From: Thermoplasmatales archaeon SW_10_69_26
GTDB taxonomy: Archaea; Thermoplasmatota; SW-10-69-26
Length of the DNA stretch: 59,661 bases
Direction of reading: 5' to 3'
NCBI GenBank assembly: GCA_003009755.1
Contig: PXUB01000023.1
Span: forward strand, 1 to 59,661
The notes under the pieces were generated by a model, which ran no database searches, had not been told where the DNA came from, and saw only the letters and a list, made by a program, of their open reading frames with translations. Below, piece after piece: positions 33,986 through 41,440 of the stretch (position 1 is its first letter; every line of letters begins with the position of its first letter). Both the position numbers and the translations under genes were made by a program.

Positions 33986-34903
33986 ATCCGCGTCGTCGTG
34001 ATGGGGGCCGGCGCGATCGGGTCCATGCTGGGGGCTCGGTTGGCCGACGAGCACGACGTGACCTTGATCGGGCGCGAGGCTCACGTCCGCGCGATCCGGG
34101 AGCGTGGGCTCGAGGTGACCGGCCACACCCAGCGCACCGTCGACGTGGACGCCCGCACGGACGCCCACGAGTTGGATCCAGCCGACGTGGTCTTCCTCAC
34201 AGTGAAAGCCTACCAGACCGAGCAAGCGCTGGCGGACGTCGAGCCGGCGATCGGCCCCAACACGTTCCTCGCAACCCTGCAGAACGGCTTGGGCAACCTC
34301 GAGCAGCTGGCGCGCCGCGTCGGCGAATCGCACGCGATCGGCGGCACGACGAGCCACGGCTGTCTCTTCCACGGCCCCGGCCGCGTCGAGCACACGGGCG
34401 TGGGCGACACCGTGATCGGTCCGATCGCGCCCCCCGACCGCCCGGCCCACCACCAGCTGGCCGAGGCGTTGACCGAGGCGGGCATCGAGGCCGAGGTCGC
34501 CGCCGACATCCGTCCCCAGCTGTGGGCCAAGGCGGCCGTGAACGCGGCGATCAACCCGGCGACGGCGATCGCCGGGCTGCCCAACGGCGCTCTGCTGGAC
34601 GTCGACGAGCTCGAGCGGTTGCTCGAGGCCGCCGCCCGCGAGGTCGAGGACGTGGCCCGCTCGGAGGGCATCGAGGTCGAGGAGGGCGCCTGGGTCGACC
34701 GGGCTCGGACGGTGGCCAAGCAGACCGCTCGCAACCGATCGAGCATGCTTCAGGACGTCGAGCGCGGCCGCCGCACCGAGATCGACGCCATCTGCGGGCG
34801 CGTCGTCGAGGTCGCACGCCGCAACGGCGTGCCGGTGCCGCGCAACCAGACGCTGCACGGGCTCGTGAAAGGGATCGAGGCGACGCGCACCTATGACGGG
34901 TGA
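33986..34903 (+). CDS. panE: 2-dehydropantoate (ketopantoate) reductase, probable ATC start
   Basis: (I)RVVVMGAGAIGS, TVKAY, LQNGLGN, WAKAAVNAAINP, SSMLQD, RTEIDAICG. Confidence 0.92.
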   Translation: MRVVVMGAGAIGSMLGARLADEHDVTLIGREAHVRAIRERGLEVTGHTQRTVDVDARTDAHELDPADVVFLTVKAYQTEQALADVEPAIGPNTFLATLQNGLGNLEQLARRVGESHAIGGTTSHGCLFHGPGRVEHTGVGDTVIGPIAPPDRPAHHQLAEALTEAGIEAEVAADIRPQLWAKAAVNAAINPATAIAGLPNGALLDVDELERLLEAAAREVEDVARSEGIEVEEGAWVDRARTVAKQTARNRSSMLQDVERGRRTEIDAICGRVVEVARRNGVPVPRNQTLHGLVKGIEATRTYDG

Positions 34904-36275
34904 GGTCCGCTCGGGGGCGGCCACCCGCACCGCCGTCGTCACGGTCGCCATCGCACTCGTCCTGTTCCTGGGCAAGCTGGCAGCCGCGTGGACCTCCGGT
35001 TCGGTGGGCCTGTTGTCGACGGCCGTCGACAGCGGCCTGGATCTGGGGATGAGCCTCGTCGTGCTGGCTGGCATCCGGTTGGCGCAGATCCCCGCCGACC
35101 CCGAGCACCCCTACGGTCACGGCAAGTTCGAGAGCGTCGCCGGGCTCGTGGAGGCCGGCGTCCTGGCCGCGGTCGGCATCCTGGTCGGCACCGTCGGCGT
35201 GCTGCGCGTGCTCGATCCGGACCCGGTCACGCTCGACGCGTGGATGGTCGGCGTGCTGCTCGTGTCGGCGCTGGTCGGGGCCGAGCGCGGCTACACCCTG
35301 CACAAGGAGGGCCAACGCCACGGCTCGGCTGCGCTGTCGGTCGACGCCTGGCATTACGCGACCGACGTCGTGACCTCGCTCGTCGGCCTGTTGGGAGCCT
35401 GGCTGGCCACGCAGGGCTGGGCGTGGGCCGACGGCGGAGCCGCGATCTTCATCGGCGGGTTCCTGGCGGCCGGGAGCCTCCACGTGGGATGGCGTGCGGC
35501 CGGGGATCTGGTCGACAGGGTTCCGCCGACGTTGACCGAGCGGGCGGCGGCCGCGATCCGGTCGGTCGCCCGGGTCGAGAACGTCGACCAGGTGCGCGTG
35601 CGAGGCGCGGGCCCGGACACGTTCGTCGACGCCACGGTCGACATCCCGCGCTCGCTGGGCCTCGAGCAGGCCCACGAGGTGATGGACCAAGTCGAGGCTC
35701 GCGTCGAGGAGGAGCTGGGCGGAGCCGACGTCACCGTGCACGCGGAGCCGGTCGCGGCGAGGGAGACGGCGATCGCCGAGCTCAAGGTCCTCGCGGCCCG
35801 GGACCCCGACGTTGTGGGGATCCACGAGATCCTCGTCGACGAGATCGGCGACGAGCTGTACGTCGACTGCCACGTCGAGGTCGCCGAGGACGTGACCCTG
35901 CGGGAGGGGCACGAGATCGCTCACCGGTTCGAGGCGCGAGCCAAGCGCGAGGTCGAGGCCGTCGCCGGGATGCGGACGCACATCGAGCCGGCTCCCCACG
36001 ACCCGCGGGAAGGCCAGGATGTCACCGACGAGCACGACGACCTGGTCGCCGCGATCGGCAAGGCGATCGAGCAGGGCCCGTTCACGGGCCGAGGCTCGAT
36101 CGCGCTCAAACGCGTGCCGCCGAACCTCGAGGCGGTCGTGGCCGCCCGGTTGCCGGGCGAGACGGAGCTCGAGCAGGCCCACCGTGCGGCGCACGAGCTC
36201 GAGCACGAGCTGCTGGGCGAGATCGGCGGGCTCGACCGGGTCGTCGTCCACATCGAGCCCGAGGAGAGCCCATAG
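34893..36275 (+). CDS. Cation diffusion facilitator with three C-terminal dimerisation-type domains
   Basis: DSGLD, DPEHPYGHGKFE, HYATD; three ...AH...E...(V/T)H(A/I)EP modules. Confidence 0.9.
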   Translation: MTGEVRSGAATRTAVVTVAIALVLFLGKLAAAWTSGSVGLLSTAVDSGLDLGMSLVVLAGIRLAQIPADPEHPYGHGKFESVAGLVEAGVLAAVGILVGTVGVLRVLDPDPVTLDAWMVGVLLVSALVGAERGYTLHKEGQRHGSAALSVDAWHYATDVVTSLVGLLGAWLATQGWAWADGGAAIFIGGFLAAGSLHVGWRAAGDLVDRVPPTLTERAAAAIRSVARVENVDQVRVRGAGPDTFVDATVDIPRSLGLEQAHEVMDQVEARVEEELGGADVTVHAEPVAARETAIAELKVLAARDPDVVGIHEILVDEIGDELYVDCHVEVAEDVTLREGHEIAHRFEARAKREVEAVAGMRTHIEPAPHDPREGQDVTDEHDDLVAAIGKAIEQGPFTGRGSIALKRVPPNLEAVVAARLPGETELEQAHRAAHELEHELLGEIGGLDRVVVHIEPEESP

Positions 36276-36389: not shown

Positions 36390-37547
36390 CTACGCCACCA
36401 CGGCCTTGGCTTCCTGCGTGACGCCGACCTTCTGGCAGCGGCCCTCGCGCTCGCGCGTGACGACGCCGGCGTCCTCGAGCTTCTGCAAGTGCCAGCTGAC
36501 CAGCGCCGCCGAGTAGCCGAGCGCCTTGGCCGCCTCGGCTTGGCTGGCGCCGGGATTGTCGGCGTAGAACTCGGCGATGCTGCGCGCCTTGTCGTTCTCG
36601 AGGGCGGGCAGGATCGCCTGCTCGGAGTCGGAGACCTCGCCGGGCAGGAAGAAGCACCGCTTCCCGTTGGTCTTCTCGGAGGTGACCAGATCGGCCTTCT
36701 CGAGCTTGCGCAGGTGGTGCAACAGCGTGCCCCAGCTGGCGTCGAGCTCGCGGGCGAGCTCGCTGAGGTGGATGCCCGGATCGTCCTCGATCGCCTCGTA
36801 GATCGTCTGGCGGGCCGGATGATCGAGGAGCTCGTCGCGCTTGATCCGGGTGTAAAGCGGAGCCAGGCCCGGCGCCCAGCGGAGGTAGCGCCAGGCGCGC
36901 GTGTACCAAGCGGCGCTGCCGGCGGCCGCGGAGCCGCCCGCGGCGGCGGAGGCGGCGATGGCTTGACCCTTGCGGGTCTCGGGCCAGGCGGCTGCGAGGC
37001 CCTGGCCGAGGTCGACGGTCACGGACGCGATGCCGGCGCCCAGCCAGACGACGCCTTCGCCGAGGCGGGTGCCGGCCCAGGTGATCGCGGAGCCGGTGGT
37101 GGCGAGCCCGCCGACGACGAGGCCGGTCGTCTCGACGGCGAGCCAGGCGGTGGCCTCGCCGACGGCGACGGCGGCCGTGGCGATCTGCGTGCCGGTCCAG
37201 CCGGCGGCCGTGCCGACGGCCGAGCCGGTCCAGGTGGCGGCGGAGGCGATCGCCGAGCCGGCGACGGCCAGGGCGTGGCCGGTGGCCTCGGCAGCTGTGG
37301 CGATCGCGTCGCCGACGGCGGCGAGCGAGCCCGAGATCTCGTCCAGCGCGGAGGCTTCCTCGCCGGCGTCGTCCGTCTCGGCCTCGGCGGCCGTCACCAC
37401 GTCTTCGGCTCCCGCGTCCACGTCGACATCGCTGGTGCTGTCCTCGACCTCCTCGGCGCTGGGCGAGCCGGCCATCCCGAGGCCGGCGACCGTCACCACG
37501 AGCGCGAGCGCAGCGAGCCACGTCGACGCATGGCGGAAGCCGGTCAT
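36390..37547 (-). CDS. Signal peptide + amphipathic Ala/Gly repeats + C-terminal tandem winged-helix regulator
   Basis: LYTRIKRDELLDHPARQTIY..PGIHLSELAREL..GTLLHHLRKLE; second HTH PGASQAEAAKALG..LVSWHLQKL. Confidence 0.8.
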   Translation of the reverse strand: MTGFRHASTWLAALALVVTVAGLGMAGSPSAEEVEDSTSDVDVDAGAEDVVTAAEAETDDAGEEASALDEISGSLAAVGDAIATAAEATGHALAVAGSAIASAATWTGSAVGTAAGWTGTQIATAAVAVGEATAWLAVETTGLVVGGLATTGSAITWAGTRLGEGVVWLGAGIASVTVDLGQGLAAAWPETRKGQAIAASAAAGGSAAAGSAAWYTRAWRYLRWAPGLAPLYTRIKRDELLDHPARQTIYEAIEDDPGIHLSELARELDASWGTLLHHLRKLEKADLVTSEKTNGKRCFFLPGEVSDSEQAILPALENDKARSIAEFYADNPGASQAEAAKALGYSAALVSWHLQKLEDAGVVTREREGRCQKVGVTQEAKAVVA

Positions 37548-37762
37548 CACGGACCAGCCCGCTGACGAGTTCATCAATCTTGGGGTACGGTCGTTTGACG
37601 GTGGAGGAGAACCGATACCTTGCCGACCAGAACGACGGACAGATGACGGATGGTATACCTATTCCCCGTAACGGAGACGGTCCCGCCGGCTGCTCGGCCG
37701 CATCGGGCCCGCAGGGGGAGGCACCGTTGCGGTGAAGTAGGATGGGCTGCTTGCCGGCGGTG

Positions 37763-38002: not shown

Positions 38003-38104
38003 GTCCTACCCCCGACGCGACGGGCCCGGCGGTCGGCGGTCGTCGGTGCCTGGCCATCGCAGATGGAAACCCTCTTGAGGCCGGTTACCGCATCCCTCCC
38101 TGGG

Positions 38105-38368
38105 ATGCACGAGATGGACGCCCGCCGAAAGAACCAGCTCCTCTTCTACCTGGACATCGTGGCCCTGGGTCTGGGCGCCGTCGCGCTCGTCACGCTGGTC
38201 CACGATGCCTTCCAGGCCGGGTACGCCAGCCAGGTCGCCTCCGCCGCCCTCGGCGACTACCTGTGGCGGATGGTCGCCGAGATCGGCGTCGTCGCCGTCG
38301 CGCTGGTGTACTTCCTCACCCGGTTCTTCCGGATCCGGATCCGCGAGCTCTCCAACCCCTGGGGCTAG
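38105..38368 (+). CDS. Small two-TM membrane protein
   Basis: MDARRKNQLLFYLDIVALG...; two hydrophobic helices. Confidence 0.6.
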   Translation: MHEMDARRKNQLLFYLDIVALGLGAVALVTLVHDAFQAGYASQVASAALGDYLWRMVAEIGVVAVALVYFLTRFFRIRIRELSNPWG

Positions 38369-38663: not shown

Positions 38664-39539
38664 CTACCCTTCGTAGTCGTAGGCCGGCCGGAACACCGAG
38701 CCGCCCCTCTGCCGGTACTCCTTCTCGCGGACGCGGTCGCTGAGCTCGTCGAGCACCTCGTCGATCGATTCGCTGACGACCTCGTTGAGCTCCTCGCTTT
38801 GCAGCGTGTGGATGACGGAGTCCAGCGTGGCGTCGGTGACCTCGCGGACGAGGCGCTTGCCGGGGCGCGTCCGGACGAGCACGCCCACCCGTGGGTTGTC
38901 CTCGAGGGCGTTCCGGACGGACCGGTGGATGTTCTCGCGATGGTCCTCCATCGAGTTGCCGACCGTCTCCGTCCAGCGGGCGCGCATCATCGGGTCCCGC
39001 AGCGTGCTGATCGAGGTCAACACGATCGGGTCCGTGATCTCCTCGAGCAGCACGCCCTTGTAGTGGTTGATCAGCCCGCGCACCAGGGCGTAGGACCAGT
39101 CGCGCTCGGGGACGTTCTCCATCGGGTAGGTTTCGACGACGTAGATGCGGAGCAAGCGGACGAGGCGGACGGCGCGGAAGCCCCAGTGGGCGATCGGCAC
39201 CATGCCGACGAGCTCGTACCAGTGGTTGCGGGTGTAGGCGAGCTTGCTGGTCGCCTGTCGGACCTCGCCGAGGAACTCGAGCGCGAAGATCCCGAGGATG
39301 ACGAGATCGATGGCGACGATCGTCGTCTCGGCGTAGCCGGGCAGGAAGTCGGCGTACACGTCGCGGGCGACCAACAGCAGGATGTCGAGGACGGCCAGGC
39401 CGACCATCAGCCAATCGCCGGCGTTCACGGGTTCGAAGCCGCGGGACAACAGGTCGCCGAGGTCGCCGCCGTGGTTGCCGCGTTTCTGCACTGGCGACCA
39501 CCGACGGCCCTCCGCCTCGGGCTCGACGGGTCCAGACAT
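38664..39539 (-). CDS. Voltage-sensor-like (S1-S4) membrane protein without a pore domain
   Basis: S1 LAVLDILLLV, S2 IFALEF, S3 WYELVGMVP, S4 RAVRLVRLLR, then a soluble helical tail. Confidence 0.75.
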   Translation of the reverse strand: MSGPVEPEAEGRRWSPVQKRGNHGGDLGDLLSRGFEPVNAGDWLMVGLAVLDILLLVARDVYADFLPGYAETTIVAIDLVILGIFALEFLGEVRQATSKLAYTRNHWYELVGMVPIAHWGFRAVRLVRLLRIYVVETYPMENVPERDWSYALVRGLINHYKGVLLEEITDPIVLTSISTLRDPMMRARWTETVGNSMEDHRENIHRSVRNALEDNPRVGVLVRTRPGKRLVREVTDATLDSVIHTLQSEELNEVVSESIDEVLDELSDRVREKEYRQRGGSVFRPAYDYEG

Positions 39540-39589
39540 GCGCAGGGCTAGGCCACGGGGCAGCAAGAAGCCGGCGGTCCAGGCTGGCG

Positions 39590-40402
39590 TCAGTCCCGGT
39601 CGGCGTCCACGCTGTGGACGTCCACGGTGGGGCCCTCCTCGCCGCCGCGCAGCGCCTCGCCCAGCCGGCGGGCGTCCTCCCAGGCGGCCACCAGCACGAC
39701 GTCGAGCCCGCGCTGGGCGGCCGAGCGGGCGACCTCCTCGGCGGCGAACGCGATCGGGCCCTGGGGGGCCTCGAGGCCGGCGCGTTCGGTGAGCACCTCG
39801 GCCTCCACGCCGCTGGTGACGAGCACGTCGGGATCGGCCTCGATCGCCTGGAAGGCCTCCTGGACGGCCCTCGGGCCGGGCAGGGAGGCCGGCGGCGGCA
39901 GGCGGAGCAGGTCCACGTGCCCGGGATCGAGGTCGACGACGCCGGTCAGCCCGCCGACGGTGACCAGCTCGCCGGGCTGGCCTCCCTTGCGCACCGTGCC
40001 CGTGCTCGGGCTGTCGGCTTGCCGGGCCACCAGGCGGCCCTCCTCCATGAACAGGCCGACGTCGTCGCCGGGGGCCAGCCGCTCGTCGGCGACGGCGACG
40101 CACTCCTCGATGTGCATCATCTCGCCCAGCGCCCGGTCGACGAAGGCCTTCAGGCCGACGAAGTGCTCGTGCAGGGACTGGACGCCCTCGCTCGTGATCC
40201 GCACCGCGCGCGAATCGTCGTCGTCGAAGGCGACCAGGCCCTCGTCGGCCAGCTGCTCGAGGTTGTAGGAGACACCCTGGATCGTGAGATCGGTGGGCTC
40301 GGTGAGGTCGGAGGCCCGCAAGGGGCCGCGCTTCACGAGCTCGAGCAGGATGACGAACCGGACGGGGATCGGCGGGTCCTCGGCCACGGCGGGGGCTGAC
40401 AC
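39590..40402 (-). CDS. Archaeal wHTH transcriptional regulator (COG1497-like)
   Basis: LTIQGVSYNLEQLADEGLV, ITSEG, GDDVGLFMEEGRLVA, SAAQRGLDV. Confidence 0.75.
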   Translation of the reverse strand: MSAPAVAEDPPIPVRFVILLELVKRGPLRASDLTEPTDLTIQGVSYNLEQLADEGLVAFDDDDSRAVRITSEGVQSLHEHFVGLKAFVDRALGEMMHIEECVAVADERLAPGDDVGLFMEEGRLVARQADSPSTGTVRKGGQPGELVTVGGLTGVVDLDPGHVDLLRLPPPASLPGPRAVQEAFQAIEADPDVLVTSGVEAEVLTERAGLEAPQGPIAFAAEEVARSAAQRGLDVVLVAAWEDARRLGEALRGGEEGPTVDVHSVDADRD

Positions 40403-40466
40403 GACGGAGGAGGGGATGAATGTGGGGGTCCCGCGACGGCGCGCTGTAAGGACAAGAAACGGGGGG

Positions 40467-40552: not shown

Positions 40553-41440
40553 GTGGCCTTGGCGATCCTTCGTGTCCTTCGCCGCGCCCGGCGGTGGGTC
40601 TACCAGCTGTTGCAGGGCACCCACCGCGGGTTCGGGCTCTCGCGCACGGTCAACGTCGCGATCATCGCGTTGATCCTGGCCAACGTCCTGGCGTTCACGC
40701 TGGAGAGCGTCGACAGGCTCGGGATCCGCTACTACGACGGGTTCCGCCTGTTCGAGACCATCTCCGTCGTCCTGTTCACGATCGAGTACCTCGGTCGGTT
40801 GTGGGTCGCCCCCGAGCACGAGGCCTACGATGGCTCGATCCGCGGACGGCTGCGCTGGGCGATCACGCCCTTGGCGCTGGTGGACCTGCTTGCGATCTTG
40901 CCGTTCTACCTGCGCGGCGTGGTGCCGGTCGACCTGCGCGTGTTGCGGATCCTGCGGTTGCTGCGCTCGGTGCGGGTGCTGAAGCTGGCTCGCTACAGCA
41001 CCGCGATCCGCGCCCTGGTCGAGGTCGTCCGACGGAAAAGCGCCCAGCTCGTCATCACGTTCGTCGGCGCGGGCCTGTTGATCCTGCTGGCGGCCTCCTT
41101 GATGTGGATCGTGGAGGGAAACGTGCAGCCGGAGGCGTTCCCGAACGTACCGGCCACGCTGTGGTGGGCGGTCGTCACGTTGACGACGGTGGGGTACGGG
41201 GACGTCGTGCCGGTCACGACGGCCGGCAGGATCCTGGCCGGCGTCATGGCGATCCTCGGTATCGCGTTCATCGCCGTCCCCGCCAGCATCCTGGCCTCCG
41301 GGTTCGGCGAGATGTTCCAGACCGAGCCCGAGGGCGAGCTCACCTCCGAACAGGGGGCCGATCAGACCCCCGAGCCGCCGTTCGCGTGCCCGCACTGCGG
41401 CGAGACGATCGACGAGGGGCCCGAAGGGGCGCGGGAGTGA
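40553..41440 (+). CDS. 6-TM voltage-gated potassium channel with a C-terminal zinc-ribbon motif
   Basis: S4 LRVLRILRLLRSVRVLK, filter TTVGYGD, C-terminal CPHCG. Confidence 0.93.
   Translation: MALAILRVLRRARRWVYQLLQGTHRGFGLSRTVNVAIIALILANVLAFTLESVDRLGIRYYDGFRLFETISVVLFTIEYLGRLWVAPEHEAYDGSIRGRLRWAITPLALVDLLAILPFYLRGVVPVDLRVLRILRLLRSVRVLKLARYSTAIRALVEVVRRKSAQLVITFVGAGLLILLAASLMWIVEGNVQPEAFPNVPATLWWAVVTLTTVGYGDVVPVTTAGRILAGVMAILGIAFIAVPASILASGFGEMFQTEPEGELTSEQGADQTPEPPFACPHCGETIDEGPEGARE

Follow-up and report, generated by a model that had tools for sequence, protein, structure and literature searches.

A pore-less prokaryotic voltage-sensor-domain family with a conserved cytoplasmic helical domain

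Described pore-less voltage sensors and the gene at 38664..39539

Voltage-sensor domains (VSDs) that stand without a pore are known from several systems. The proton channel Hv1/VSOP (HVCN1) has a membrane part made of a VSD alone, without S5-S6; the voltage-sensing phosphatases Ci-VSP and TPTE have no pore and carry a cytoplasmic domain attached directly to the VSD; and TMEM266 (HVRP1, C15orf27) is described in the accessible part of PMC6392501 as a pore-less S1-S4 voltage sensor whose output is unknown, C15orf27 being called apparently non-conducting in the available text of PMC3607825. For prokaryotes, the available text of a 2023 review reports from database searches that no VSD is known without an accompanying pore domain (PMC10377628), and the accessible portions of reviews from 2023 and 2024 state that neither bacteria nor archaea have been found to contain Hv channels (PMC10377628; PMC13095418). 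Here we describe a gene on the minus strand at 38664..39539 of a 59,661-nt stretch of DNA from Thermoplasmatales archaeon SW_10_69_26 (contig PXUB01000023.1, positions 1 to 59,661; hereafter the window) that encodes a VSD protein, P0001, in which a soluble helical domain follows S4.

The reading frame of this gene extends from stop to stop over 38664-40103, and an ATG at 39539 opens a product of 291 amino acids (aa). The closest homologues also start with Met-Ser at this point, and the boundaries given in a preliminary description, made from the sequence alone, are therefore those of the gene. The features of P0001 are as follows.

38664..39539, minus strand: open reading frame (ORF) for P0001, the pore-less VSD protein, with 291 codons and a stop; in single copy in the 2.82-Mb genome
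39426..39449, minus strand: pre-S1 cytoplasmic motif LSRGFEPV (residues 31-38), nearly invariant among 29 close homologues
39129..39422, minus strand: VSD, S1-S4 (residues 40-137), placed by the KvAP profile match, AlphaFold2 (AF2) pLDDT of 84-93 and VIA superpositions
39384..39386, minus strand: codon of D52, the polar residue in the middle of S1; the 81 full-length members have D (34), S (39), N (5), A (2) or H (1) here
39276..39287, minus strand: charge-transfer-centre motif of S2, F85-A-L-E88; of the 81 members, 68 have the F (9 have W, 4 have Y) and 61 have the E (9 have D)
39147..39176, minus strand: S4 ladder R122/R125/R128/R131; R in 65, 64, 62 and 50 (plus 9 K) of 81
38703..39098, minus strand: conserved, predicted all-helical cytoplasmic C-terminal domain (C-domain; residues 148-279), from AF2 of the domain alone and motif conservation

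P0001 belongs to a family for which neither Pfam nor NCBIfam holds a dedicated model. A word-indexed search returned 30 clusters of 245-313 aa, and an exhaustive search of 1.84 billion representatives returned 134 proteins at E ≤ 1e-3, 56 of them at E ≤ 1e-10. The VSD and the C-domain lie in one continuous match to the family model in 81 of 164 proteins; this 81-member set comprises matches running from profile position ≤36 to ≥250, with P0002 dropped as a near-copy of the query. Named records of relatives come from metagenome-assembled genomes of Thermoplasmata/Thermoplasmatales (5), Halobacteriales (1) and Leptospiraceae/Leptospirales (3). Within the phylum, 40 of 401 sampled Thermoplasmatota genomes match the family profile, and in 32 of these the match extends into the C-domain, with all 6 genomes from the taxonomic family of the window among them (G000 included).

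As far as sequence tells, this is a previously undescribed, pore-less prokaryotic VSD family with a new cytoplasmic domain. Our full-text search, which did not reach subscription journals or supplements, found no literature description of pore-less prokaryotic VSD proteins. An earlier phylogeny, in the accessible part of its text, places the split between pore-less and channel VSDs back in bacteria (PMC3607825), and the available text of Palovcak et al. 2014 mentions, without describing it, a VSD sequence set that clusters with no annotated family. A conserved prokaryotic VSD family without a pore contradicts the statement, as worded in the accessible part of the 2023 review, that all prokaryotic VSDs have one (PMC10377628).

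A voltage-sensor domain followed by a cytoplasmic helical domain

By sequence and by model, the membrane part of P0001 is a canonical S1-S4 VSD. All of the features that the preliminary description had listed are present: four transmembrane segments, an S1 reading LAVLDILLLV (with D52), F85-A-L-E88 in S2, and an S4 carrying R122-A-V-R125-L-V-R128-L-L-R131. AF2 places helices at residues 40-62 (S1), 68-95 (S2), 99-113 (S3) and 119-137 (S4), inside a block (residues 31-140) modeled with pLDDT 84-93. The distribution of charges in the loops fits an N-in, C-in topology, which is the usual orientation of channel VSDs. The charge-transfer centre is defined, in the accessible text of PMC13095418, as an aromatic and an acidic residue in S2 together with an acidic residue in S3; P0001 has these as F85, E88 and E109. 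Of the 81 full-length members, 68 keep F85 and 13 have W or Y instead, 61 keep E88 and 9 have D instead, and 70 have an E or D at position 109; the most strongly kept positions are P115 (81), D78 (80) and W107 (76).

Kinship with channel VSDs is seen at the level of sequence profiles. Searched against PDB sequences, a profile of the 29 close homologues matched the KvAP voltage sensor (2kyh, E 2.2e-4; 1ors, E 3.1e-4) and two bacterial Nav-type channels (4dxw, E 4.2e-3; the BH1501 protein, 6vwx, E 7.7e-3). All of these matches are confined to the S1-S4 part, and for the C-terminal half the same profile found no PDB chain better than E 0.47. P0001 itself matches Pfam Ion_trans below threshold (E 0.027, 14.1 bits against a cut-off of 25), with residues 42-132 falling on profile positions 5-105 of 241, and has no match in an NCBIfam scan. 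Ion_trans is matched at E ≤ 0.1 by 42 of 76 family members (best 4.9e-9), and relatives above the Pfam cut-off (P0052 with 34.5 bits, P0063 with 30.0 and the L057 protein with 33.6) match it over S1-S4 only.

The structural model agrees with this assignment. Superposition on known VSDs finds the VSD fold, with root-mean-square deviations (rmsd) of 2.6-3.6 Å over 97-104 residues: in VIA the P0001 model matched the Ci-VSP VSD 4g7v (Z 7.7, rmsd 2.6 Å, 98 residues), KAT1 (Z 7.7, rmsd 2.7 Å, 97 residues), KvAP (Z 7.4, rmsd 3.6 Å, 104 residues) and NavMs (Z 8.9, rmsd 3.4 Å, 102 residues). Z values of 7.4-8.9 lie in a range rated middling for helical proteins and count only alongside sequence evidence; because the superpositions and the sequence evidence point the same way, we take the VSD fold as settled. 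A Foldseek search of the whole model against the PDB gave no match at E ≤ 0.001, and its rows for six-transmembrane (6TM) channels, which span about 280 columns at rmsd 15-30 Å, reflect the VSD only and were set aside.

S4 is not followed by a pore. No 19-residue Kyte-Doolittle window beyond residue 137 exceeds 0.9, while S1 and S2 reach 1.9-2.2, and P0001 therefore lacks an S5-P-S6 region. In keeping with this, the Ion_trans match ends at profile position 105 of 241, Ion_trans_2 is not matched in the Pfam scan, and the C-terminal part is modeled as soluble, so that the preliminary description's claim of a missing pore holds, and a reading of the tail as a degenerate pore is rejected by the hydropathy and the soluble-domain model together. 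Here P0001 departs from its closest solved relatives by profile and structure, KvAP and the bacterial Nav-type channels (4dxw, 6vwx, NavMs, NavAb): it shares with them the spacing of the S4 arginines and the acidic residues of S2 and S3, whereas in these channels an S4-S5 linker and a pore always follow, and in P0001 a soluble helical domain does. Among proteins of 511-2000 aa we found no longer, fused relative at E ≤ 0.001, which is weak evidence.

The post-S4 part of P0001 comprises about 150 aa and is non-hydrophobic and, in the model, all-helical. It starts with a 10-residue linker (138-147) and contains a conserved five-helix domain of about 130 aa, with predicted helices at residues 148-186, 189-199, 201-213, 225-246 and 249-279. 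AF2 modeled the tail poorly with a 29-row alignment; given the C-domain alone and a 76-row alignment it returned a model with pLDDT 90.0 and pTM 0.67. The preliminary description had seen a long soluble helical tail and compared it with the coiled coil of Hv1: the tail is indeed modeled as soluble and helical, but as a five-helix domain instead of a short Hv1-like coiled coil. A heptad scan of its helices showed weak a/d enrichment, and a two-copy prediction with a 68-row alignment scored 0.23 against a mark of 0.42, which speaks neither for nor against a homodimer.

The C-domain is conserved to the same degree as the VSD across the 81 members and is always joined to it. Its conserved motifs are EEITDP (166-171), with E166 in 52, E167 in 47, D170 in 56 and P171 in 55 of the 81, and SEELN (248-252), present in the family as S-x-E-x-N, with S248 in 51, E250 in 52, N252 in 48 and the neighboring L246 in 75. 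No Pfam family recurs in this region across 76 members. Foldseek assigned the domain no fold (best E 0.89), and VIA comparison with 48,161 chains gave no specific fold, the top rows having Z 8.0-8.4 at rmsd 12-15 Å; those for IpaB (Z 8.4, rmsd 15.5) and a T7 protein (Z 8.3, rmsd 12.0) were rejected as matches of generic long helices. We therefore treat the C-domain as a new cytoplasmic domain that matches no solved fold. DUF445 (PF04286) was considered as its identity and rejected: the matches are stray and sub-threshold (P0111, E 0.0097; one of 76 members, E 0.0047), a DUF445-related structure row in the ESM Atlas reached a TM score of 0.50, under the bar, and the DUF445 model has zero matches in the source genome and none in the genomes scored for families f1 (5) and f2 (9); every genome of f1 and f2 that was scored with the VSD family profile matched that profile.

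Taken together, these data suggest that P0001 senses voltage without a pore and uses the movement of S4 to drive its cytoplasmic domain of helices, a reading to which we give even weight against everything else. A change in membrane potential would move R122-R131 past the charge-transfer centre of F85, E88 and E109; the 10-residue linker would relay this movement to helix 148-186, the long helix that opens the C-domain and carries EEITDP; and the output would be an altered conformation of the C-domain or the binding of a partner. Of this chain, the parts that we infer are the movement of S4 with voltage, the role of the C-domain as output and the target of that output; the VSD fold and its sequence kinship, the intact charges, the missing pore segment, the conserved and confidently modeled C-domain and the existence of the family are what the data show. 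The preliminary description's suggestion of a stand-alone voltage sensor gains from the same observations, the VSD being genuine, with charge ladder and countercharges intact and nothing beyond S4 spanning the membrane.

By analogy, the logic of the proposed mechanism is that of the voltage-sensing phosphatases and TMEM266, with a different output. Like Ci-VSP and TPTE, P0001 would couple a VSD directly to a cytoplasmic domain; it differs from them in that this domain is predicted to be all-helical and belongs to no phosphatase family of Pfam or NCBIfam. P0001 contains no cysteine at all, and a Cys-based phosphatase site is therefore impossible. A small, cysteine-free, single-domain protein of this kind would be a system for studying how a voltage sensor drives a non-channel output. 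It could also be used to ask how microbes sense the potential across their own membrane and where Hv1, the voltage-sensing phosphatases and TMEM266 originated.

Several points weigh against a sensor with cytoplasmic output. The assignment of the C-domain as an output domain is argued from conservation alone, and the domain matches no solved fold or Pfam family. An aspartate in mid-S1 (D52) is unusual for a plain sensor, its equivalence to the Hv1 residue being a comparison of the preliminary description and not a direct alignment. The seven sequencing runs listed with the stretch, from three studies, are all DNA and labeled as halite metagenomes, with no RNA run among them. Finally, about a dozen distant members lack the S4 arginine ladder and retain the C-domain, so that the core function of the family may not require voltage sensing. 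These ladder-less members, together with the presence of C-domain motifs among the most conserved ones, would fit a VSD-derived membrane anchor that has no voltage function and tethers or orients the conserved helical domain. We regard such an anchor as quite improbable: P0001 and most members retain all four arginines together with the two acidic countercharges and the aromatic gasket residue, which would be unexpected of a mere anchor across the distances separating Thermoplasmata, Halobacteriales and Leptospiraceae. What probability the readings discussed here do not take up belongs to some explanation outside them.

The S1 aspartate and the comparison with Hv1

The preliminary description had proposed that P0001 may be a voltage-gated proton channel like Hv1, because of the aspartate in mid-S1, and had itself held that a non-conserved aspartate would speak against this. 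The residue is not conserved in the family. Among the 29 close homologues the D52 column contains D in 20, S in 5, N in 3 and H in 1, and of the 81 full-length members 34 have D and the other 47 have Ser, Asn, His or Ala in its place. On a maximum-likelihood tree of the family, built with this column omitted, the position changed at least eight times, and aspartate occurs in three separate clades. The window protein lies in starred all-Asp sets of 6, 8 and 11 rows, and a starred five-member Ser clade is nested within its Asp clade. Proteins of the Ser clade retain the arginines, the countercharges and the C-domain motifs; since they keep all other features, the function of the family, whatever it is, does not depend on the S1 aspartate.

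On the proton-channel reading the VSD of P0001 would itself conduct H+, with D52 and an S4 arginine as the filter and the C-domain serving assembly or gating. Several observations fit it. The membrane part is a VSD without a pore, aspartate is present here and throughout the nearest clade, and its occurrence in three separate clades hints at a selected role; from the sequences, the recurrent gain of aspartate suggests that the residue does something. The profile alignment places the D52 column opposite a mid-S1 Ser of KvAP, and Asp112 of Hv1 corresponds to a polar position of this kind in other VSDs. Helical-face conservation moments of 0.02-0.18 are too low to tell which way D52 faces.

Other observations point away from a proton channel. 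In Hv1, according to the accessible text of PMC3607825, neutral substitutions of Asp112 abolish proton selectivity and render the channel anion-selective, and only Glu preserves it, whereas the replacements seen in the P0001 family are Ser, Asn, His and Ala. The element RxWRxxR is named as conserved in Hv1 in the available parts of PMC8804609 and PMC10377628; the S4 of P0001 reads R-A-V-R-L-V-R-L-L-R and lacks the Trp between the first two arginines, as the preliminary description had cautioned. P0001 carries four arginines in S4, where Hv1 has three plus an Asn (PMC13661669, in the part available). The family profile matched 22 PDB sequences at E ≤ 10, with KvAP and bacterial Nav-type channels among them but no Hv1 chain; nor was one among the top 50 rows of either VIA list. 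Such absences do not exclude kinship.

With a variable aspartate, no S4 Trp and no Hv1 match at E ≤ 10 in the PDB profile search, the claim of an Hv1-like proton channel is weakened, and we consider it unlikely. The likeness to Hv1 comes down to a VSD-only membrane part, the mid-S1 aspartate of P0001 and a helical cytoplasmic C-terminus; besides the residues named above, the two differ in that P0001 has a predicted five-helix domain of about 130 aa where Hv1 has a short coiled coil, and in that the P0001 family is prokaryotic. A bolder variant, in which the VSD of the Asp-bearing clade conducts H+ and would be the first prokaryotic voltage-gated proton channel, independent of or ancestral to Hv1, with the family as the missing prokaryotic pore-less branch, we think likewise unlikely. 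With regard to the stated absence of Hv channels from prokaryotes, the P0001 family nonetheless supplies candidates.

The pore-less sensor with a cytoplasmic output also has a counterpart in TMEM266, which has a Ser at the position of the Hv1 aspartate. TMEM266 differs in being eukaryotic, and we found no sequence link between it and P0001.

Gene neighborhood, distribution and further observations

Three neighbors of the VSD gene are relevant to its interpretation.

39590..40420, minus strand: regulator with HTH_20 and DUF7839 (start codon not fixed), ending 50 nt upstream of the VSD gene
40553..41440, plus strand: complete 6TM Kv-type channel, divergent from the regulator (Ion_trans 3e-27, Ion_trans_2 4.8e-15)
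38063..38368, plus strand: ORF of 101 aa that converges with the VSD gene and encodes two hydrophobic stretches; no Pfam family, found by tblastn beside the VSD gene in L032 and L034

The Kv channel contains the stretch TVGYGD, which we take to be the K+-channel filter signature. The preliminary description had linked the VSD gene to this channel across the regulator; the layout of the genes is as it said, but the synteny is confined to the closest relatives. In a survey of 20 archaeal loci, the regulator adjoins the VSD gene in all 3 loci of the same taxonomic family, and the Kv gene lies next to it in 2 of these; in the 17 other loci the regulator never adjoins it. A Kv-like gene lies within 5 kb (about 4 kb away) in one of the 17 (L040), and in three bacterial loci neither gene stands beside the VSD-family gene. 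Beyond close kin we found no recurrent neighbor among 124 ORFs from the 20 archaeal loci and 25 from four others; ORF calling, by a GC3 filter followed by greedy selection on length, overlooked some genes of these high-GC loci or put them on the wrong strand.

This arrangement raises the possibility of a partner specific to the locus, with P0001 acting either as an accessory sensor for the neighboring Kv channel or as a voltage-dependent membrane holder of the HTH-DUF7839 regulator, which would control the Kv gene. In its favor, the regulator gene shares the strand of the VSD gene and ends 50 nt before it, the two are neighbors in the window and in all three same-family loci, and in the window and two of those loci the Kv gene diverges from the regulator. 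We find such a partnership very doubtful. The adjacency is absent from the distant and bacterial loci, and among close kin it may be just inherited gene order. The DUF7839 regulator is single-copy in the source genome, and its family is also matched in control genomes of Methanocaldococcus, Haloferax and Methanosarcina, which makes it look like a regulator general to archaea; it is context, probably outside the mechanism. P0001 is not significantly similar to the Kv channel (BLASTP E 0.55), and its origin as a recent duplicate of the channel's own sensor was rejected on this ground. Because the adjacency is limited to the closest relatives, DUF7839 also occurs in the control genomes and P0001 does not resemble the Kv channel, the arrangement is best read as gene order inherited among close kin; and since no neighbor is conserved across the family, a self-contained protein, as the pore-less sensor with a cytoplasmic output would be, fits.

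Three genomes, all belonging to a single genus, encode a DSP-type Cys phosphatase (PTP-SAK / Tc-R-P; roughly 160 aa; L043:6261-6740, L049:8895-9377, L051:4965-5450) on the strand of the VSD-family gene, 0.2-1.7 kb away, an arrangement that recalls a voltage-sensing phosphatase split into two genes. We rejected the phosphatase as a general partner, its family being absent from the source genome, which is 95% complete. A role in anti-phage defence was likewise dropped, with no PADLOC family found for P0001 or three relatives.

Several members of the family depart from the usual architecture. Tandem VSD-family paralogues occur in two genomes of one genus (G128:C31:12534-14242, corresponding to L034 7028-8682, and G113:C171:1640-3360); those of L034 are 60% and 43% identical to P0001. 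A single in-frame TAG falls within the match at G312:C434:756-1487 and at G018:C20:5918-6610, where a pseudogene, an assembly error or a recoded stop is possible. Four low-GC proteins of 454-572 aa (P0106, P0107, P0111 and P0114) have an apparent soluble insert of about 150-300 aa after the first hydrophobic helix, which carries a conserved GIEPHR motif and precedes S2-S4 and the C-domain. P0083 has an N-terminal DUF2341 region. Two C-domain-only proteins, P0046 and P0055, start with V or L instead of M and were taken as gene fragments.

The ESM Atlas gave further leads. Feature-based and unaligned, one set of these points to additional clusters in Actinomycetota and Chloroflexota. A 459-aa cluster, mostly from Methanobacteriota, has CorA in 100% and Ion_trans in 90% of its members, which suggests a VSD fused to a CorA-type Mg2+ channel. 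Bacillota clusters of 124-130 aa contain the Ion_trans part only and may be VSD-only mini-proteins.

Around the locus itself, we found no notable inverted repeats between the regulator and the Kv gene. The Kv protein (40553-41440, plus strand) ends in a short CPHCG tail with sub-threshold matches to DUF7575, DUF7576 and DUF7577 (E 0.11-0.25), which may be zinc-ribbon-like. At 36390-37577 on the minus strand lies a gene for a 395-aa protein with a hydrophobic N-terminus, a long Ala/Gly/Thr/Asp-rich region and two winged-helix domains at its end (HTH_24, 3.3e-20; HTH_HVO_0163_N, 2.2e-18), and a homologue occupies the same position in L034. The 460-aa ORF at 34893-36275 on the plus strand, taken by sequence alone for a cation-diffusion-facilitator-type transporter, also has a homologue that keeps its position in L034, with 56% identity over 449 aa.

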